The notes below the pieces were generated by a model, which saw nothing but the letters and a program-made list of their open reading frames with translations, was not told the origin of the DNA and ran no database searches. DNA of 64,000 nucleotides from an uncultured Candidatus Micrarchaeota archaeon (GTDB taxonomy: Archaea; Micrarchaeota; Micrarchaeia; Anstonellales; Bilamarchaeaceae). The position numbers and the translations under genes are program-made. The DNA lies in assembly GCA_963714085.1 (NCBI GenBank), contig OY970229.1:1184001-1248000 (forward strand), given 5' to 3'. This document shows positions 52,968 through 64,000 of this stretch, piece after piece. Every line of letters starts with the position of its first letter. Position 1 is the stretch's first letter.

Positions 52968-53213
52968 AGTGTATCCCTCTATAATGAGAGGTGGACAGAC
53001 GTTATCTTGCATCCACCATATCCCACAATATACTATATGTACCGAACTCTTTATAAACGGTGCGCGGCTGATACTCTCCTCTCATTCTGTCCGACAGCAT
53101 GCCATGCGCGTTCCAAAACCCCGAAATACCAGTGCGAGCGGGCCGATGCGCCGGTACGCGCTCTCGAAACGAATTAAAGACCAAAGCCCGCTAATAAGCG
53201 TGATAATATGGTG

Positions 53214-54461
53214 ATGGCGAAGATATCCGAACCGCGGCCCGAGGCTCCGAAGCTAGCCGAACAGCCGCCGGTGACCGAGGTGCTCAGGAACGCGGGCCTT
53301 GAGCCGAAGAAGCTGAATCCCATCGAGCTCGAGTACTTCAAGATCGCGCTCCCGAGGCTGATGGCCGGATGGCAGGCGGCAGGCAGGAAGGTCGAGCTGG
53401 AAGCCGCCCGCTGGCTCGAGACCCAGGTCGCGCAGAAGCAGGAGTTCCTCAAATCCACGAACGCGTCCCCTGCGGAATTGCGCAATGTCCAGACGGACCT
53501 CAGGCACGTGCATGAGAAGGTGCTCGCCCTGGAGAAGGCCGGGCTCGTCGCGACGAAAACCGAAAGATTCCCCTACGGCATGATGCAGAGGCAGGTCGAC
53601 GAGCTCAAGAAGATGGGCATCGGTGATCCATACAAATCCACGTGGGAGCAGCGGAGGATCGCGGGCATCAGGTCCATGTACTCGAACCCGTTAGAATCAC
53701 GCGAGGGCAGGAGGGTGGAGCTCGCCGCATCGAAGCGCATGAAGGCCCTGCGGGATGCCGATATAGCCAGGAACGGACCGATGCAGGAGAGCCCTTTCAG
53801 CGACGAATACAGGATAAAAAACATGAAGAACGTCCAGGAACAGATGATGGCGAGCGCGACGTACAGGAAAGCCATCGAGGATCAGAACTCCAGGTTCCCA
53901 GCGCATCAGAAGACCGCCGCCAATATGATTATGGATGCGATAGCGAAGGCGCGCAACCCCAAGGCCGACATCGGGCCAGCGAGCTCGCTGTACGCGCGTG
54001 CCGTGAGGGAGTACTCCAGTATGCTGGAGATATACTCGAAGGACCGCGCCTTTGGCAGGGACCCGAAAGAGCGTATGGTCGCGGGCCTGGTCTCGGAGGA
54101 GAGGGCGATCAGGATCGCCATGGCCGAGAAGATCTCAAAGACTCTGATCGCCCAGCAGAAAGCCAGGCCGAGGGAGCCCGAGGACGCCATCGTGCACAAT
54201 TATGAATTCACCGTCGCAGGCTTCGGTTCCGAGGAGAAAACTACCACTTATCAGTTCTCCACCACGAATCCGATCGATTCGAGGCTATTCCGCCATGCGC
54301 TGGACGTCTCTTCTCCTGAAGAGGCGCGGAGCAATCTGGCGGCCCTGGGCGTCGTAGGTCTGTCTGCCAGGGCGATCGCCGAGATGCGCGAAGGGATCCA
54401 GGATCCGATCGCCCAGACCCAGCTCGTCGAGATCAAGGCCAAGAAGGGTACTAAGGGTTGA
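53214..54461 (+). CDS. Hypothetical helical protein
   Basis: About 415 aa ORF with coding-like codon bias; no recognised motif. Confidence 0.7.
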   Translation: MAKISEPRPEAPKLAEQPPVTEVLRNAGLEPKKLNPIELEYFKIALPRLMAGWQAAGRKVELEAARWLETQVAQKQEFLKSTNASPAELRNVQTDLRHVHEKVLALEKAGLVATKTERFPYGMMQRQVDELKKMGIGDPYKSTWEQRRIAGIRSMYSNPLESREGRRVELAASKRMKALRDADIARNGPMQESPFSDEYRIKNMKNVQEQMMASATYRKAIEDQNSRFPAHQKTAANMIMDAIAKARNPKADIGPASSLYARAVREYSSMLEIYSKDRAFGRDPKERMVAGLVSEERAIRIAMAEKISKTLIAQQKARPREPEDAIVHNYEFTVAGFGSEEKTTTYQFSTTNPIDSRLFRHALDVSSPEEARSNLAALGVVGLSARAIAEMREGIQDPIAQTQLVEIKAKKGTKG

Positions 54462-55221
54462 TGGTAAATCCGCCCTTCGGGTTCGGCATCGGGCTTATCT
54501 TCGTGCTCCCGAAACGGACTTCTCCGCCATTTTCCGTGAAAGAGGATCCGTAGTCGGAGCGGGGCAGCTGCACGTCAACTGAAAAATCGGTCCCTATCTG
54601 GTCCACTACGATTTTACCGCCCACGGGCGCGAAGAACAGGAAGCCGGGCACCACCGCCATCTTCGCGTTCGTGACGTCCATCCCGTCCCCGTGTATGATT
54701 GTGTCGCCATGGATCGGGATCTCGCGTATCCTGTCCGTCTGCACGAAAATGCGGTCATCCGTAGCGACCCACGAGACGAACGGCCTGCTGAAGATGCGGG
54801 TCATGTCCTTATGGGAGAACAATTCGCCGAAGCTCCCCTGGCCCAGCGTTTCCTTATCCTGCTTCGCCTCGATGATGATCCATTTCCTGCTCGTGAGCAT
54901 GAAAGCGCGCTTCTCGCTGCACCAGACGCCATGGACCGTTTCTCCCTGACCCAGCATCTTCTCCGATCCAATCTCGCGCACAGTGGCGCCCGAGCGCTTG
55001 TACCTGAAGGTCTCGCCGTCGAATTCGCATTCGGCCTTGCCTGATTTGTGGCTCTTTTTCTGCGCCAGGGGCAAACCTCTTTTTCCGCTGGTCGCCTGCG
55101 TGTCCGCGAGGGGCGCCTTGCCCGTGAACGCGCTAGCATACGCGGGCGAGCGTACCCCCAGCACGGCTGAGAGCGCGAGCGCAGTGCATACGACCTTGAA
55201 TCCGCTTTGTGCCGGGCGCAA
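54451..55221 (-). CDS. Hypothetical exported beta-rich protein (N-terminus uncertain)
   Basis: Signal-like VVCTALALSAVLG...AYASA; upstream ATG ORF at 55360 is out of frame. Confidence 0.55.
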   Translation of the reverse strand: MRPAQSGFKVVCTALALSAVLGVRSPAYASAFTGKAPLADTQATSGKRGLPLAQKKSHKSGKAECEFDGETFRYKRSGATVREIGSEKMLGQGETVHGVWCSEKRAFMLTSRKWIIIEAKQDKETLGQGSFGELFSHKDMTRIFSRPFVSWVATDDRIFVQTDRIREIPIHGDTIIHGDGMDVTNAKMAVVPGFLFFAPVGGKIVVDQIGTDFSVDVQLPRSDYGSSFTENGGEVRFGSTKISPMPNPKGGFTINP

Positions 55222-56825: not shown

Positions 56826-58082
56826 ATGGATCTGACCATGCCACTGCTGATCTTTCTGCCAGACACCGCCCTGGTCATGATCGGAGTCTCCCTCATGCTC
56901 AGCGTCGTCGTGACCGCGCTGTTCTACATGCTCGCCTACACGCTCCAGCACCCCCCGTTGTTCACCCTGGCCAAGGAGGAGCTCTCGGCGCTCCTCTTCA
57001 GCGTGATAATAATAGTGGCCTGGATGTCGTCGGCCAGCCTGATGGATCCCATCGCGAAGGGGCTCATCGCGCCCGTCGCGGTCCAGGTGCCGTCTCAGTC
57101 TTCGGACCTGTTCTCCTCGCACGTGACGCTTGCCATCGCCTCCACCGAGATCATGTTCAACAAGCTGCGGGAGATGTACATCTCCATGTACCTTTACGAG
57201 GCGCTCATAGGCTTCCTGTCCACGCTGAGCTTCCCCATAATATCGGCCGTGGCCGGCCCGGCCATAATCTCGTTCACCCTCATGCCCTTCGACGGCCTCA
57301 ACCTGCTCAGCAACGCGCACACCATCGTGGTCGAGGCCATAGGCACCATGATGACCCTCATCTGGGCCAAGGAGTTCATACTGATATTCTGCAGGGACGC
57401 ACTGCCGGTGCTGTTCCTCCCCCTGGGCCTCGTCATGAGGTCCATACCGTTCCTCAGGAAGACCGGCTCGTCCATAATCTCCATATGCTTCGCCGGATAC
57501 TTCGTGCTGCCCTTCGCCATCCTGTTCTCCAACTTCCTGATATTCGACGTCTACCAGCCTCCGGACTTCGTCTACGCGCCCGAGCACTTCAGCATATACA
57601 AGACGGACCTCACCGAGACCAGCGCGCAGAACGAGATAACCGGCGCGAGGGACAACGCGTCGTCCAGCCTGACCAAGCTGTTCTCCGCGCCCACCGCGGC
57701 GCAGCAGGCCACCACCACCGCGTCCTGTTCGGGCAACAGCGTCGTGCAGATGTTCTGCTCCGCGGGCAACATCGTGCGCAACATAGGCACCGGCATAGTC
57801 GACTTCGCCAGCTCGGTGTTCAACATCTGGAAGTTCATGATGGGCCTCACGGGCGATTTCGCATCCACGTTCCTGTCCGGGGCGAACCAGCTCCTGCCCG
57901 CGTCCGCTACGGCCGGGATGTTCTTCTTCATCATAGACTCCGTGGTGAGCGAGAGCCAGTTCCTGGTCCTCGTGATGATCTCCACGGTGATAGAGATAAT
58001 ATTCACCATAACCATGTACCGGAACATAGCGCTCATAATCGGAGGCGAGCTCGACATCGCGGGCCTCTCCAAGATAATCTGA
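56826..58082 (+). CDS. Polytopic membrane protein, CedA/VirB6-like paralogue 1
   Basis: YML...AKEEL; LGLVMRSIPFLRKTG; C-terminal IGGELDIAGLSKII. Confidence 0.7.
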   Translation: MDLTMPLLIFLPDTALVMIGVSLMLSVVVTALFYMLAYTLQHPPLFTLAKEELSALLFSVIIIVAWMSSASLMDPIAKGLIAPVAVQVPSQSSDLFSSHVTLAIASTEIMFNKLREMYISMYLYEALIGFLSTLSFPIISAVAGPAIISFTLMPFDGLNLLSNAHTIVVEAIGTMMTLIWAKEFILIFCRDALPVLFLPLGLVMRSIPFLRKTGSSIISICFAGYFVLPFAILFSNFLIFDVYQPPDFVYAPEHFSIYKTDLTETSAQNEITGARDNASSSLTKLFSAPTAAQQATTTASCSGNSVVQMFCSAGNIVRNIGTGIVDFASSVFNIWKFMMGLTGDFASTFLSGANQLLPASATAGMFFFIIDSVVSESQFLVLVMISTVIEIIFTITMYRNIALIIGGELDIAGLSKII

Positions 58083-58090
58083 GGTTGCAT

Positions 58091-59638
58091 ATGAGGAAGA
58101 CGCTGTTCGCCCTGCTGCTGCTGGCGCTTGCCGTCCAGGCACAGGCCGTGCCAACCACCGCGCCGCAGTCTCCGGTGTCCGTCTTCAGCTCCCAGCTGGA
58201 CGTCGCGATGGCGCTCATAGGCGCGATCATGGCCGCGCTGATAGCCCTCGCCGCGGTGGTCTACGCCGTGGGATCGCTTTTCGGGTCCGAGACGCAGGCG
58301 AGGGCGAGCGTCTGGGCCAAGTCCATGGTCAGTGCCGTGGGCGTCGCCGCGGTCCTGGTGGTCATCCTGTTCTTCTTCCTGCCCAACTACCAGCTCGCGA
58401 CCAGCGTGGATCTTGACACCATGATCGGCAGCCTCATGACCACCGCACGCGTGGTGCTGGGCGCGATACTGATGGCCCTCATCGTGCTGTCCGCCGCGAC
58501 GTACGCCCTGGGCCAGGTCGCCGGGGCGGAGACCCGTTCAAGGGCGACGGTGTGGGCCACCGGCATGCTTGCGGCCGCGCTACTGTGCGCCGTGTTATAC
58601 GTCCTGGTCTTCGTGGTGTTCACCCAGTTCGGCGACACGCTGCTGGTCGGCACCGTGCTCGAGCCCTACAAGAACATCGTGATAGACATCGCCTTCTTCG
58701 TGGCCGCCATAATACTCATCACGTACACCGCGGCCCGCGTGTTCGGGAACACGGAATGGGAGGCCTACCTGAACGTGGAGATGACCAACCTGGCCGGCTC
58801 CTTCCTGGTGCTGGTCTTCGTGCTGGGTTTCTTCGCCGCGGGCACCGTGTTCTCCACCTTGGTCATCGGCAACTCCAGCACCCCGCCGGCGGCGGCGCTG
58901 ACGTTCATGCGCCAGACCGTGGCCAGCAGCCTGCTCTCCGGGATGTACGACGTGTTCAGCATACAGACCTGCACCTCGATGCTGAGCACCTTCAGCAGGA
59001 GGTTCGGGGAAGCCGCCCTCACCAACGTGATAAAGGTGTTCCCTGGCATCAACGTCTTCGTCCAGATAACGAACGTGCTCGGCTACGGGTTCGTGACCAT
59101 CTACACCAGCGTCTCGGCGCAGATGACGGTGCTGAACCTGGTGGACGCCTTCATGGTGCCCTTCGTCCTGCCGGCCGGGCTGATACTGCGGTTCTTCCCG
59201 CCCACCCGCGACGCCGGCTCGTTCCTCATCGCCTGCGCGTTCTCGGCCCAGTTCATCTTCCCCCTGCTCTACATGATAAACTCCATGGTGCTCAGCGACC
59301 TCCAGGTCCAGGTCTACGACCAGGCGAAGTCCGCGCTCATCATAAGCTCTCTCTGCGGGCCGTTCAAGTTCGGGGTGACCGGCGTGCTGTTCCAGCCGAT
59401 CTCGAAAGGCGTCACCGCGATACCCCTGTTCTCGAACCTGCCGGGGATGGACACCCTGTTCAAGGTCATACTGTCCGAGCCCACGCTCAACATGCTGCCC
59501 ATGCTCGAGTTCGTGCCCGTGATGCAGTCCCTGGCGCTGCTGTCGCTGTTCGGGCTTTTCGTGCCCGCGTTCGCCCTGACAATGACCATAGCGTCCATAA
59601 ACGCTATAACTAAATTCCTGACTGCGAAGGTGTCATGA
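58091..59638 (+). CDS. Polytopic membrane protein paralogue 2 with signal peptide and two pilin (VirB2-like) repeats
   Basis: True start MRKTLF after GAGGT; repeats ETQARASVWA and ETRSRATVWA; AGLILRFFPPTRDAG. Confidence 0.7.
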   Translation: MRKTLFALLLLALAVQAQAVPTTAPQSPVSVFSSQLDVAMALIGAIMAALIALAAVVYAVGSLFGSETQARASVWAKSMVSAVGVAAVLVVILFFFLPNYQLATSVDLDTMIGSLMTTARVVLGAILMALIVLSAATYALGQVAGAETRSRATVWATGMLAAALLCAVLYVLVFVVFTQFGDTLLVGTVLEPYKNIVIDIAFFVAAIILITYTAARVFGNTEWEAYLNVEMTNLAGSFLVLVFVLGFFAAGTVFSTLVIGNSSTPPAAALTFMRQTVASSLLSGMYDVFSIQTCTSMLSTFSRRFGEAALTNVIKVFPGINVFVQITNVLGYGFVTIYTSVSAQMTVLNLVDAFMVPFVLPAGLILRFFPPTRDAGSFLIACAFSAQFIFPLLYMINSMVLSDLQVQVYDQAKSALIISSLCGPFKFGVTGVLFQPISKGVTAIPLFSNLPGMDTLFKVILSEPTLNMLPMLEFVPVMQSLALLSLFGLFVPAFALTMTIASINAITKFLTAKVS

Positions 59639-60972
59639 TGACGACCCTAGACGTGTGGTATTCCACCTGGATCCCCCTCGCCGGGGCGGCCCTCGGGCTC
59701 GCCATCACGCTATCCGCCCTCGTCTACATGCTCGGCACGGCGCTCATGAACGACAAGATGAAGGGCTGGGCGAAGATGGAGCTGGTGGAGGCCTTCTACT
59801 CCGCGGTGATAATCGCGCTCATCGCCACTCCAGGGCTCGGCGCCCTCATGCTCGTGGACTCCGCGGTCCAGGGCGGCCTTTTCCTGAACCAGGCCAGCCC
59901 GACGGTGTTCATAGCCGAGAGGGGCATCTCCCTCCCGCTGTGCGGGGATGCCATAGCCTCGGACCCCAGTTCGATATACTACGACGTGACCGCCTGCCAC
60001 ATGCGGCTCGGCATCTGGTACCTGCACACGCTGTTCCAGGAGGAGCAGAGCCTCGCCTACAAGGACTACCTCACCTACATCTACACCTCCACACTGGCGG
60101 ACTTCACGATAAACTACGAGTTCATAACCCAGGCCGCGGGCATGTTCAGCATCACGCCCTGGAGGGGCTTCTTCACGACGGGCAACACCATAAGGAGCAT
60201 GGTGTTCGACTACCTCATCAAGCTGATGATAGTCACGAAGTTCCAGGAGGTGCTGCTCTCCTTCACAGCCACGGCCCTGTTCCCCGCGCTGTTCGTGAGC
60301 GGCGCGGTGCTGCGGACGTTCACCTTCAGCAGGCGCCTGGGCGGCCTGCTGCTCGCCATGTCGCTCGCGCTCTACTACGTGTTCCCCGCGTTCTATGCCC
60401 TGGGCGGCCTGCTGGTGTACCAGATCAAGGTCCAGATGGCGGGGGACCCGAGCTTCACGGCGATCTGCGGCCAGCTCGGGGCCAACGCCTGCAAGGACCC
60501 GCCCATCACGAACTTCATGTACGTCACCGGCCAGATCCCGCTTCCGGGGAGCAACCTGAGCACGGACGACGCGCAGGCCGCGTACAACACCCTCCAGGGG
60601 CAGACCATGGAGCAGCGGCTCAAGACCGACGAGAACGGCTCGGGCGGGTACATGGCGCTCAATTCGCAGAACGGCAACCCGGCCGCGGATTTCGCGCAGA
60701 TCCAGACCCTGGCCAACCGCGACCAGGCCATGAAAGACGCCAGCAACAAGACCAACTCCTGGTTCAACCTGGTGACCTCCTCGTCCAAGCTGGACACCAG
60801 CATCTTCAGCGCATACATGGCAGGGGGGCCGGTGGACGCGCTCGCGCGCCTCGCGTTCTTCTCCACGTTCTTCGCGCTCTTCGGCATACTCGCCACGATA
60901 GCGACAATACGATCGATCTCCGCGACGCTCGGAGGGGACCTGGAGATAGCCGGGCTCACGCACCTGATATGA
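59635..60972 (+). CDS. Polytopic membrane protein paralogue 3
   Basis: YMLG...WAKMEL; GAVLRTFTFSRRLGG; LGGDLEIAGLTHLI. Confidence 0.7.
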   Translation: MMTTLDVWYSTWIPLAGAALGLAITLSALVYMLGTALMNDKMKGWAKMELVEAFYSAVIIALIATPGLGALMLVDSAVQGGLFLNQASPTVFIAERGISLPLCGDAIASDPSSIYYDVTACHMRLGIWYLHTLFQEEQSLAYKDYLTYIYTSTLADFTINYEFITQAAGMFSITPWRGFFTTGNTIRSMVFDYLIKLMIVTKFQEVLLSFTATALFPALFVSGAVLRTFTFSRRLGGLLLAMSLALYYVFPAFYALGGLLVYQIKVQMAGDPSFTAICGQLGANACKDPPITNFMYVTGQIPLPGSNLSTDDAQAAYNTLQGQTMEQRLKTDENGSGGYMALNSQNGNPAADFAQIQTLANRDQAMKDASNKTNSWFNLVTSSSKLDTSIFSAYMAGGPVDALARLAFFSTFFALFGILATIATIRSISATLGGDLEIAGLTHLI

Positions 60973-60976
60973 GGAT

Positions 60977-62218
60977 ATGAGGATGGACAAGAAAACGATG
61001 GTTCTCCTGGTGGCTGTTCTGCTCGTCGCCTTCGCCGGCATAGCGCTCGCGGACAGCCTCACGGACATGCTCAACACCCAGAACAGCACGCTGGCCACCG
61101 AGGGGAGCGCGTTCGTCAAGGCCACCCAGGCCGGCGTGGGCACGATACCAACCGTCTTCAACTCGGTGTTCGAGGCCTTCGATCCGGGCTTCTGCGGCAA
61201 CGACATGTTCACGGCGAACATCGGGTGGATAGAGGCTACCCTCGCCGCGCTCCTGGCGCTCGCGTTCGCGATCGCGCTGGTCTACATGCTCGGCGAGCTC
61301 ATGCAGATGCCGGGCCTGCTCGCCCTCGCCAAGGACGAGGCGGTCCAGATGCTCTACACCATCCTCAGGGTGGTCTTCATATTCGGCGTGCTCTTCGTGG
61401 CACAGACCTGGTTCACGATCCGGGTCTCGGGCAGCACCGACCCGGTGTACTCCATAACCAGCCCGGACCCGCTGAACCCCGGGGGAGCGCCCACGATCAT
61501 AGACGCGGCGATGGCGTTCTGCCGCTCCGTGATAGTCGAGATGATAACGAACTACTCCAACCTCGTGATGTACAACATGGTGATAAACACCGTGTACTCG
61601 TCCACGATGTGGTTCGGGGTCACCTGGCGCACGATGTACTCGTTCAACCTGGGCCCGGTGCTAAAGCCCCTCATAGACATCATCGGCATGGCGTTGCAGT
61701 ACCTGGGCCTGGGCATGGGCGAGTGGATGGCCCACCTGGCGATCCTCTGCCTCATAAAGAAATGGACCTGGACGATGTTCATCCCGGTGGCGATATTCAT
61801 GCGCGCGCTTCCCCAGACCCGCACCGCGGGCGAGGCGCTCTTCGCCATCACGTTCGCCCTGGCGCTGATATACCCATTCATGTTCCTGGTGACCTACGAG
61901 ACCCACAAGCTCATGAAGGGCAACCTCGTGGACAGCAGCCAGGCGCTGCAGTCGTTCGTGCAGAAATCCGGCATACTCAAGGTGGCCGGCTCGATGCTCA
62001 TAATCGTGTTCCTGGCCGCGGGCGTGTTCTTCCCGTTCTTCCTGGGCGCGGGCCTCAACATCGCCCTCGAGATGGTCAAGAGCTCGGTTTATTACGTGGT
62101 CATACTATCATTGTTGCTGCCGTTCATAAACATATTCGTGACCCTCACGGCGGCCAGGGAGTTCGCGAAGTTCTTCAACGTGGATGTGTCGTTCATGTCG
62201 TTCGTGAAAGTGATATAG
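60977..62218 (+). CDS. Polytopic membrane protein paralogue 4 (signal peptide)
   Basis: YMLG...AKDEA; AIFMRALPQTRTAG. Confidence 0.7.
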   Translation: MRMDKKTMVLLVAVLLVAFAGIALADSLTDMLNTQNSTLATEGSAFVKATQAGVGTIPTVFNSVFEAFDPGFCGNDMFTANIGWIEATLAALLALAFAIALVYMLGELMQMPGLLALAKDEAVQMLYTILRVVFIFGVLFVAQTWFTIRVSGSTDPVYSITSPDPLNPGGAPTIIDAAMAFCRSVIVEMITNYSNLVMYNMVINTVYSSTMWFGVTWRTMYSFNLGPVLKPLIDIIGMALQYLGLGMGEWMAHLAILCLIKKWTWTMFIPVAIFMRALPQTRTAGEALFAITFALALIYPFMFLVTYETHKLMKGNLVDSSQALQSFVQKSGILKVAGSMLIIVFLAAGVFFPFFLGAGLNIALEMVKSSVYYVVILSLLLPFINIFVTLTAAREFAKFFNVDVSFMSFVKVI

Positions 62219-63298
62219 ATGCTGACCGCAGACCAGATAGTACAGAACACTGCCTGCCCCCCGTCAGCCGGGGCCTTCCAGCAGTTCCTCTGCGGCTGGC
62301 AGGGAACCATGGTGCTCGCCCTCACGGTGTCCGCGGTGTTCCTCGCGGCGTTCTACATACTGTCCGTGCTCATGAGGAACGAGGGGCTCAAGGGCTTCGT
62401 GAAGCTCGAGGTGTCGGAGCTGTTCGTGACCGTGGTGCTGGTGATGATACTCCTGGGCGCGATGGGCGCGGTCTCGGACCTCCCGTTCGGCTCCCTGGTC
62501 TCATCAAGCAAGCTGCCCGGCGTCACGGACAGCGCCAGCATCTACAACGTGACGGATACCTATTTCAATACGCTCGGCGATTTAATACCGTACTTCCTCG
62601 AGACCGATTACGTTCTGGGGGTCATGGTGGACTCCTTCGCCTCGGTGCAGTCCCAGCCCAGGCCCATGGGGGTCGGGATCGTGGCCCCGCCGTTCGCAGG
62701 GCTCGCCTCGCCCATCAAGCAGCTCCTCTACAGCATGTCCAACGCGCTCGCCATCGCGTTCGTCGTCAATTACGCGCAGCTCTACGTCTTCCTGTTCATG
62801 CTGGAGGGTTCGCTGCACTATTACATACCCCTGGGCATAATCCTGCGTTCCCTCACCCCCACGCGCAGGATAGGCGGCGCGCTGATCGGGCTCGGGGTGA
62901 GCTTCCTGTTCGTGTTCCCGGTGATATACTCGCTGACCTTCGTCATGTTCTTCGACGGGGCCGGGCCCATGGAGACCCTGCGCTCGTTCACGGAAAGCCG
63001 CTTCGACATGAGCCCGGGCGTGGGCAACCTGATAAAGAACTTCTACAGCAGCAAGGCCAACCTGGGCTTCCCGGACCTCGTGGTCTCGCTGATAGGCGAC
63101 CTGGGCAGCATGTTCGCGTCGTTCGTAGGGGAGCTGTTCACCCTGGCCATGGTGCTGCCGATAGCCGTGGTCGGCTTCGTGGGGGCCGCGGGCCTGGTAT
63201 CGGTGTTGGACATACTGCTCATGGTGCAGGTGACGTCCGCGCTCAGCAAGACCATGGGGGAGGAGGTCGACATCTCCACGTTGACGAGGATGGTCTGA
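62219..63298 (+). CDS. Polytopic membrane protein paralogue 5
   Basis: YILS...VKLEV; LGIILRSLTPTRRIGG; MGEEVDISTLTRMV. Confidence 0.7.
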   Translation: MLTADQIVQNTACPPSAGAFQQFLCGWQGTMVLALTVSAVFLAAFYILSVLMRNEGLKGFVKLEVSELFVTVVLVMILLGAMGAVSDLPFGSLVSSSKLPGVTDSASIYNVTDTYFNTLGDLIPYFLETDYVLGVMVDSFASVQSQPRPMGVGIVAPPFAGLASPIKQLLYSMSNALAIAFVVNYAQLYVFLFMLEGSLHYYIPLGIILRSLTPTRRIGGALIGLGVSFLFVFPVIYSLTFVMFFDGAGPMETLRSFTESRFDMSPGVGNLIKNFYSSKANLGFPDLVVSLIGDLGSMFASFVGELFTLAMVLPIAVVGFVGAAGLVSVLDILLMVQVTSALSKTMGEEVDISTLTRMV

Positions 63299-64000
63299 AT
63301 GGCATTCCTAGACGTTCTCTACCAGGACTGGCGTACCATCGCCGTGCTCGCCGCCGCAGGCTCGGTGCTCATCTCCATAGCCGTCATCATGCTCGCCCGC
63401 CTCTTCGACATGAAGAGCCTGGAGCAGGCCGCGAAGGCGGAGTTCGTCTATGCGGCGTCCACGGTGTTCATAGTGCTCTTCGTGGTGGGCATGATCGGGT
63501 TCGGCGACACGGTGCTCAAAAGCATCCTGGTGCAGATGTACATCAACACCATAACCGCCTGCCCGCCCGCCCAGGCCGCGGTCGCCGGCTCGCCCTGCAA
63601 CCAGCTCCAGGAGGCCGCGCCGACGCTCCAGGTCAACGTGGACACGCTGCCCGACATGATGACGCTGTACATGGACGGCCCGGCCAAATGCAGCCAGCAG
63701 TTCCTGGACTACATGTACTACGCGGCGATCCCGATAGACGCCTGCTCCTCGGTGTACATGGAAGTGTACATGTCCGAGCAGCTCACATGCTGGGGCCTCA
63801 AATGGGCGTCCGAGCGCATCACCAACGGGGTCCAGATACTCACGTTCTACATGTTCGCCTACTACCTCATCGGCCACGCGATGCAGTTCGTCAAGTACTA
63901 CGCGGGCTTCTTCTTCTCCCTGGGCGTGGCCCTGCGCGCGTTCCCGCCCAGTCGTGGCGGCGGCGCCTATCTCATGGCGCTGGCGGTCGGATTGTACTTC
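63299..64000 (+). CDS. Polytopic membrane protein paralogue 6 (runs off right edge)
   Basis: Hand translation MAFLDVLYQDW...IMLARLF...AAKAEF...LGVALRAFPPSRGGGAYLMA; open to the window end. Confidence 0.75.
   Translation, partial: MAFLDVLYQDWRTIAVLAAAGSVLISIAVIMLARLFDMKSLEQAAKAEFVYAASTVFIVLFVVGMIGFGDTVLKSILVQMYINTITACPPAQAAVAGSPCNQLQEAAPTLQVNVDTLPDMMTLYMDGPAKCSQQFLDYMYYAAIPIDACSSVYMEVYMSEQLTCWGLKWASERITNGVQILTFYMFAYYLIGHAMQFVKYYAGFFFSLGVALRAFPPSRGGGAYLMALAVGLYF

Follow-up and report, generated by a model that had tools for sequence, protein, structure and literature searches.

A conserved array of six VirB6/CedA-like genes in Micrarchaeota may encode the membrane core of a chromosomal machine derived from type IV secretion systems

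A 64,000-nucleotide stretch (the window; C1:1184001-1248000) of a one-contig, 1.57 Mb Micrarchaeota genome ends in an array of six genes for paralogous membrane proteins that resemble VirB6 of type IV secretion systems (T4SSs) and CedA of the archaeal Ced system. It is very likely that the system to which these channel genes belong derives from a T4SS, and we infer that the six subunits probably form one heteromer. The reading that we favor overall, although tentatively, is that the array is the membrane core of a domesticated, chromosomal T4SS- or Ced-like machine that bridges to a host cell and transfers macromolecules. Coordinates follow the numbering of the window unless they carry a prefix.

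The array comprises six co-oriented open reading frames (ORFs) from 56826 to 64396, the sixth extending 396 bp beyond the window, with intergenic gaps of 8, -4, 4, 0 and 0 bp (Table 1). A first-pass annotation of the window had described at least six paralogous, closely packed and co-oriented ORFs. Paralogy (20-23% identity of the other proteins to the first) and packing stand, and the count becomes exactly six, because the gene after the sixth encodes a PIN_5/RNA-ligase-partner nuclease, which rules out a longer array. The three motifs said to be shared hold in substance and were too strict as written: the N-terminal motif matches four of the six proteins, the central motif three and the C-terminal motif three. 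The last had been called clearest in genes 1, 3 and 5, which are the three that match, with a pattern one residue longer. Relaxed to R-x5-R-x2-G, the central motif occurs in all six. E52, R205, R211, G214 and P229 are invariant among the paralogues (E...R-x5-R-x2-G...P), and across 151 family members the R, R, G and P of this pattern are conserved at 90-99%. Gene 2 lacks the C-terminal tail motif. Each protein contains 2-8 Cys, and loops differ strongly among the paralogues. The core-like codon usage claimed earlier is borne out by a G+C content at third codon positions (GC3) of 0.89-0.92 versus a genome median of 0.82, and the neighbors are housekeeping genes, among them a divergent class II tRNA synthetase gene on the 5′ side. 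Named homologs of the array proteins are hypothetical proteins of Micrarchaeota, in agreement with the source first assigned (Micrarchaeota, DPANN); a profile search for the family returned 3,217 clusters at 50% identity.

The kinship with VirB6 and CedA that had been proposed is upheld by a fold search on gene 5 and by profile matches in relatives. An AlphaFold model of the gene 5 product (alignment of 111 sequences; predicted local distance difference test score (pLDDT) 88.9) was compared with 48,161 chains. TrwI/VirB6 ranked first (Z 9.0, root-mean-square deviation (rmsd) 6.2, 225 aligned) and DotA second (Z 8.9, rmsd 9.4, 292 aligned), with the next row at 7.0, and a second comparison gave TrwI a Z of 10.6 (rmsd 6.6, 242 aligned); these are middling scores, with rmsd of 6-9, in a range (Z below about 13) that according to the tool's own warning can be generic for helical bundles. 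CedA and TedA were absent from the rows of the fold search, which excludes nothing. Foldseek likewise gave TrwI/VirB6 the top probability (0.69). Among the 111 relatives, the NCBIfam profile for CedA weakly matches nine (best E 2.4e-6) and that for CedE three (best E 1.2e-5), and Pfam profiles gave no relevant match; a profile of the channel alignment found nothing below E 0.47 among PDB sequences. Each of these lines is weak alone; taken together, they identify the array proteins as predicted polytopic subunits of the VirB6 type.

The genome also encodes three small predicted pilins. The pilin profile has TrwL/VirB2 as its best PDB match (E 0.0021), and three of six pilins of relatives match PF18895 (T4SS_pilin) or PF04956 (TrbC) below the cut-off, while the three pilins of this genome match neither Pfam family. 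By these matches the predicted pilins belong to the VirB2 type. The pilin profile also matches 22 of 151 channel cores, always at the N terminus, with an hhalign probability of just 11.5% for pilin against channel; the same relation, a channel N terminus resembling the pilin, is reported for CedA and CedA1 (PMC9905601). An Atlas cluster (score 0.90) has PF27251 (CedA1) on 23% of its 78 members. The pilin genes here (C1:1144782-1149766) and at two other loci (L019, L022) lie among membrane glycosyltransferase-type genes, including PMT_2 in a relative, and in many pilins the mature part has one Cys close to either end. This suggests that the VirB2-like pilins may be glycosylated and disulfide-closed.

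A motor would be provided by two paralogous ATPase modules, one of which adjoins a singleton member of the channel family. The model of the protein adjacent to the ATPase (pLDDT 89.9) resembles the N-terminal domain of TrwK/VirB4 (Foldseek probability 0.99-1.00, E 0.0015-0.016; Z 9.6, rmsd 3.1, 163 aligned). VirB4 is predicted to be split into membrane-anchored, two-helix pieces carrying the N-terminal domain and a separate ATPase; a VirB4-type ATPase with its N-terminal domain is present, distributed over separate genes. The adjacent ATPase matches profiles of CedB, VirB4 and HerA, all below the cut-off. Two other candidates were considered. A full-length VirB4 (C1:293780-296035) was rejected as a partner because of its place in a low-GC element that also has an integrase, and a HerA at C1:657906 was set aside as a repair helicase by inspection. 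The low-GC integrated element (C1:284680-304170) contains a tyrosine integrase, the full-length VirB4 and PrgI/TcpE-like, membrane and DNA methylase-like genes, and is probably a conjugative element.

How are these parts arranged? The first-pass annotation had suggested looking past position 64000 for a VirB4/HerA ATPase and small pilins; both occur in the same genome, at loci distant from the array. In other families they stand beside it. In three other families, five of five genomes have the order pilin(s), six channel genes and two partner genes; at three of these loci as many as two further membrane genes follow the pilin. In four of the five, the partner genes are followed by an ATPase and then by genes for a 100 aa protein, a two-helix Cys protein and a coiled-coil protein. 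Among 80 named ATPase loci, nearly all labeled Micrarchaeota, a channel gene directly precedes the partners in 46 and none occurs within 10 kb in 34. Of the 46 loci, 24 have six channel genes, 17 have one to five at the edge of the locus, and five have more than six, with the excess consisting of apparent gene fragments in four and of a pilin in one. At 23 of the 24 six-channel loci, the 10 kb flank is too short to rule out a seventh gene, and the named loci may overlap the genomes to which we gave handles. Three lines of weak to moderate strength, from the channel, the pilin and the ATPase partner, point to a single kind of system.

Six appears to be a fixed number. All 24 multi-gene arrays fetched (15 genomes, 11 families) contain six genes, as do 20 of 20 further arrays, one with its first gene cut at the fetched edge; the regions were chosen from clustered matches in well-assembled genomes, and an array split over contig ends (G064) was omitted. 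Along a 151-protein tree the position label switches 12 times, versus at least 84 in 500 within-array shuffles. In 136 of 144 comparisons the closest protein in a different genome shares the position, and singletons are closest to singletons in 7 of 7. The product of gene 1 has position 1 as its best match in 17 of 17 arrays of the same type. IQ-TREE, run on 88 of the 151 proteins (excluding a singleton and six genomes that were redundant or more divergent), recovered positions 2, 3, 5 and 6 in 14 of 14 cases with SH-aLRT support of 95, 91, 99 and 70, and positions 1 and 4 in 12 of 14 with support of 62 and 87. Because the trees group the proteins by position, they show the six to be old, non-equivalent subunits, each position being an ancient orthologue of its own. 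The proteins of both arrays in this genome group within the position clades, so divergence of the six preceded the duplication of the array as a block.

Position 2 stands apart. The C-terminal tail pattern is found there in 0 of 65 arrays, compared with 40-63 of 65 at the other positions, and 11 position-2 proteins carry two pilin repeats, which no other position has. The position-2 protein of the window has a probable signal peptide, as judged by eye, and its two fused pilin repeats had been overlooked in the first-pass annotation. Position 3 in other arrays carries very long Cys-rich inserts, in proteins of up to 1378 aa. The fixed number of six genes argues for a heteromer, and the odd position 2 allows a 5+1 arrangement; a complex prediction for trimmed positions 4, 5 and 6 (24-row alignments) scored 0.01 and was uninformative either way.

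The family is widespread. This genome has 13 family ORFs, made up of the array in the window, a second six-gene array and the singleton. All 41 of the order's genomes have the channel family, as do 178 of 201 genomes in a phylum sample, and the ATPase-adjacent protein occurs in 177 of the 201 with the same pattern across families (genomes at least 80% complete, our own included, with nine candidates scored per genome; both tallies include the unpublished genomes G214 and G063). Kin genomes are not independent, so this co-occurrence amounts to few events. Twenty of the 23 negative genomes were searched again: a deeper channel profile matched none of the 20, and their best ATPase (E 1.9e-17, versus 1e-185 or better in positive genomes) was not orthologous. 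Conservation across Micrarchaeota, as the first-pass annotation expected, accordingly holds, and its picture of a chromosomal, core-like system fits the GC3, the neighbors and the conservation in the order. None of the outcomes that it had named as contrary (the fold of an unrelated transporter, a genome with no ATPase or pilin partner, an unconserved array) was observed.

What might such a machine do? Each subunit would be used once in a single asymmetric oligomer, built of six different subunits or of five tail-bearing ones plus position 2, which in the second version would act as a pilin-loading or priming subunit; the two versions are equally plausible. By analogy with R388, N-terminal hairpins would recruit pilin from the membrane and a cytoplasmic VirB4 ring would drive growth of the pilus. 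VirB6 of R388 is described as a C5 pentamer whose helix 1 recruits pilin and which serves as the base for pilus assembly, with "no continuous central channel" (PMC9259494), and CedA and CedE, both required for import, have been proposed to form a hetero-oligomer (PMC11868833). In the most speculative step, a pilus or stalk would bridge to a host cell and move macromolecules. The cargo would most likely be nucleic acid, moving inward as in Ced. The variable Cys-rich loops would recognize the surface of the partner, and two six-gene arrays with two ATPase modules would represent two differently decorated versions. Transfer directed at a host we rate at an even chance or slightly less.

A number of observations weigh against this reading. 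None of the six proteins of the window has a relevant match to Pfam or NCBIfam profiles, including those for CedA, CedE and TrbL/VirB6. The fold scores of gene 5 are middling, and a designed helical repeat also reached Z 8.9 against its model. Foldseek returned no match to this model at E<=0.001 and by E-value placed TTYH2 first, a fold match that was rejected (TM 0.15, rmsd 20). The hhalign probability for pilin against channel is low. By E-value, HerA structures rank ahead of VirB4 for the module ATPase, and although the CedB profile is the best match of the module ATPases, their 98.5 and 79.3 bits compare with a cut-off of 700. Median identity is barely higher between proteins of the same position (23.5%) than within an array (21.1%), and position 4 is scattered in the full 151-protein tree. 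A C5 homopentamer with no continuous central channel, as in the solved R388 VirB6, does not fit a six-subunit pore, and a "pore" is therefore only putative. Several families of the phylum lack the system, and at least 20 Micrarchaeota genomes, 88-97% complete, have no detectable one; the phylum as a whole therefore does not need it.

It is also possible that the machine is the equivalent of Ced and Ted and serves exchange and repair of chromosomal DNA among Micrarchaeal cells with no role for a host. The nearest profile matches are CedA, CedE and CedB, both Ced and Ted are described as domesticated T4SSs that import DNA (PMC9905601, PMC11823120, PMC11868833), and no relaxase was noticed at the inspected loci, although no MOB profile search was made. 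We nonetheless consider this explanation unlikely, since Ced has one or two CedA-type genes rather than six with large variable inserts and giant Cys-rich neighbors, the canonical six-gene locus lacks a CedD-like second ATPase, and the probable ATPase of ARM-1, a cultured Micrarchaeon discussed below, is abundant in co-culture, whereas Ced is induced by damage.

Quite improbable is a scaffold for pili or adhesion without transfer, in which VirB6-like proteins build a VirB2-type filament and display domains that bind a host or biofilm. Such a scaffold would accord with the R388 VirB6 as a base for pilus assembly (PMC9259494), with the large Cys-rich domains in loops and neighbors (1131-1637 aa for type-B arrays, 1533 aa here), with pilins beside PMT-family glycosyltransferases and with the main module, for which no coupling protein was recognized. 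All characterized archaeal relatives move DNA, however, and a second, HerA/DUF87-type ATPase in singleton loci of two families suggests that a substrate is handled.

We regard it as very improbable that the six are alternative, interchangeable VirB6 variants that assemble in separate or mixed pentamers, as has reportedly been proposed for the expanded VirB6 set of Rickettsiales. Gain and loss would then be expected, whereas all 44 fetched arrays have six genes in conserved order and were duplicated as blocks; this outweighs the pentameric form of solved VirB6, the singleton loci that work with one gene and the strong variation of the paralogue loops. Finally, the middling fold scores and the 111 members with no Pfam match might point to an unrelated helical membrane family with convergent likeness to VirB6 and incidental linkage to an ATPase, an exceedingly unlikely explanation given that channel, pilin and ATPase partner each point to a counterpart in R388 or Ced, sit in one operon-like run and co-occur across genomes.

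If the favored reading, a host-bridging T4SS- or Ced-like machine, is correct, it bears on the question of how DPANN archaea attach to their hosts and are nourished by them; the source archaeon itself is tiny and probably host-dependent. In cryo-tomography of the cultured Micrarchaeon ARM-1 (Microcaldus), a 21-nm barrel in the envelope docks a nanotube judged to be host-derived, and the available part of that report leaves the components unidentified and makes no mention of T4SS, VirB or Ced (PMC11329633). Its proteome data list BCS90994-90999 at 56.5, 12.6, 15.1, 28.3 and 90.9 kDa (PMC11329633). The ATPase module at six loci encodes proteins of 56.8-58, 11.4-12, 13.6-17.9, mostly 24.6-29.6 and 87-91 kDa, with one locus departing from this pattern, and we infer, from mass and gene order only, that BCS90994-90999 are the ATPase module of ARM-1. 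The 56.5 kDa protein has an intensity-based absolute quantification (iBAQ) value of 2.3e9, versus 4.7e8 for the other ARM-1 "HerA" (PMC11329633). The six channel genes of ARM-1 were not located, no record identifiable as ARM-1 being among the 120 listed of 437 partner-profile matches.

A bolder reading, rather unlikely in its full form, makes the system the principal organelle by which Micrarchaeota contact a host. Its VirB6 ring would be obligate and asymmetric, with six different subunits or with five and a pilin-loading position 2, and would sit on a VirB4 motor in three pieces. This complex would form or feed the junction of 21-nm barrel and nanotube in ARM-1 and take up nucleic acid or other host macromolecules. 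Of the two arrays in the order, each would be a version specific to a host or a cargo. Against this and the favored reading alike, the nanotube was judged to be host-derived, and the barrel could itself be host protein. Existing tomograms and proteomes can now be searched for a defined set of genes, present nearly throughout the phylum, that comprises the pilin, the six VirB6-like subunits, the split VirB4 and accessory genes. If the six do form one oligomer, its VirB6 core would consist of all-different subunits, unlike the solved homopentamers.

Table 1. Array genes of the window and related features. C1 without a genome prefix is the contig of this genome; prefixes G113, G144, G162 and G155 denote other genomes.
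Feature	Coordinates	Strand	Remarks
Position-1 VirB6/CedA-like subunit, P0001, 418 aa	56826..58082	+	ORF call, position clade in trees
Position-2 subunit, P0002, 515 aa	58091..59638	+	Two pilin repeats, VirB6-like core without C-terminal tail
First fused VirB2-like pilin repeat, gene 2	58190..58399	+	36% identical to stand-alone pilin of same genome
Second fused VirB2-like pilin repeat, gene 2	58421..58639	+	44% identical to stand-alone pilin
Position-3 subunit, P0003, 445 aa	59635..60972	+	ORF call and trees
Position-4 subunit, P0004, 413 aa	60977..62218	+	Probable signal peptide; poorest tree resolution of the six
Position-5 subunit, P0005, 359 aa	62219..63298	+	Modeled member; top fold match TrwI/VirB6
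Position-6 subunit, P0006, 365 aa	63299..64396 (63299..64000 within window)	+	Last array gene
Three small two-helix VirB2-like pilin genes	C1:1144782-1148070		36-44% identical to fused repeats of gene 2
Second six-gene array	C1:677450-669904		1533 aa Cys-rich secreted-type protein follows
ATPase module adjoining singleton family member	singleton C1:778903		
Paralogous ATPase module	C1:477067-470821		
Giant frames with a weak VirB4/HerA-like piece	G113:C1:781272, 792482-794882; G144:C9:29657; G162:C14:36189; G155:C2:290617		

Several observations concern the surroundings of these genes. Neither the protein behind the second array nor one of 1117 aa divergent from that array (C1:665302-669903, 677549-680902) has a Pfam or NCBIfam match, and giant proteins resembling this pair flank arrays in relatives. 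Type-B arrays, at the loci shown, are followed by a Cys-rich protein of 1131-1637 aa. Singleton loci in two families (L024:10899-13199, L026:1888-4095) end in a second ATPase of 735-766 aa and HerA/DUF87 type, a possible counterpart of CedD/VirD4 with no clear orthologue in this genome. A lower-GC stretch of this genome encodes an 823 aa membrane-anchored CedB/CedD/VirD4-like ATPase (C1:223747-226218). One module ATPase (L022:4484-7627, genome G043) measures 1047 aa and has, between profile positions 77 and 74-511, a large insert that is probably an intein. Records labeled Saccharimonadales, "bacterium" or Marsarchaeota (L102, L100, L053, L068) contain a Micrarchaeal ATPase at 60-70% identity and are probably mislabeled or misbinned. 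In a mostly negative family, one genome (L046, G166) has only a minimal run of pilin, single channel gene, partner and ATPase. Some system-less Micrarchaeota have giant open frames of 2509-5337 aa with a weak VirB4/HerA-like piece, which in G113 adjoins a 450 aa ATPase; these frames recall the VirB4-fused proteins of nanohaloarchaea and may represent an alternative contact system. A tblastn search of plasmids with one relative (P0069) gave no match, and a search of RNA runs listed no RNA holder, which speaks neither for nor against the system. Within the window, two unannotated ORFs located upstream of the tRNA synthetase gene, one of 417 aa (53208-54461, + strand) and one of 256 aa (54451-55221, - strand), had no meaningful Pfam match.

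Among known systems, the T4SS of plasmid R388 (TrwI/VirB6, TrwL/VirB2 and TrwK/VirB4; PDB 7o3v, 8rt9, 8s6h and 7o42) provides the best fold or profile match for channel, pilin and ATPase partner, and DotA of Dot/Icm (9ngy) is second for the channel. R388 differs in that its VirB6 is a C5 homopentamer from a single gene and its plasmid encodes a relaxase, a coupling protein and an outer-membrane core, none of which was recognized at the Micrarchaeal loci; for relaxase and VirD4 coupling protein this refers to the genes at inspected loci, with no MOB profile search made. Nor is the array on a mobile element, as conjugative T4SSs are: its GC3 is core-like, its neighbors are housekeeping genes and it is conserved across the order.

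Ced (CedA/CedE, CedA1 and CedB/CedD; Sulfolobales and Desulfurococcales) and Ted (TedA, TedC and TedB; Thermoproteales) are likewise chromosomal, T4SS-derived kits of VirB6-, VirB2- and VirB4-like proteins. The weak matches to CedA, CedE and CedB profiles and the proposed CedA-CedE heteromer are further likenesses, and a resemblance of the pilin to the N-terminal hairpin of the channel may be another. Unlike Ced and Ted, the Micrarchaeal system has a fixed set of six paralogues where they have one or two, places the N-terminal domains of VirB4 on separate two-helix membrane proteins, includes additional conserved genes (coiled-coil/winged-helix, Cys-rich two-helix and about 800 aa), comprises, in this order, two arrays and a singleton system in each genome and occurs in a different phylum. 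Its scores lie under the curated cut-offs where these are shown, and at the level of the curated families neither the window proteins nor the ATPases qualify as orthologues of CedA, CedE or CedB. No description of a VirB6/CedA array or of this system in Micrarchaeota was found in the openly accessible literature, a scope that leaves aside subscription papers and some supplements. The machine is apparently undescribed and is not a member of Ced/Ted proper.

Tandem VirB6 paralogues with added surface domains also occur in the rvh T4SS of Rickettsiales, host-dependent diderm bacteria with a full VirB set; this expansion is presumed to be independent of the Micrarchaeal array. The giant VirB4-fused "SPEARE" proteins of nanohaloarchaea are another case in which VirB4-based secretion against a host has been proposed for DPANN archaea, and they differ in being giant Ig-repeat proteins that, as far as the available text goes, have neither a VirB6 array nor a VirB2 pilin (PMC10266531). 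The best functional analogue is the chromosomal T4SS of Patescibacteria, which is likewise relaxase-less and found in tiny episymbionts, and in which virB6 is reported to be essential for growth in one strain (PMC12102498). That system is bacterial, related to MPF-FATA and, in the accessible part of the same report, shows no fixed six-gene VirB6 array (PMC12102498). With the Micrarchaeal machine, domesticated T4SSs extend beyond Ced/Ted and Patescibacteria.

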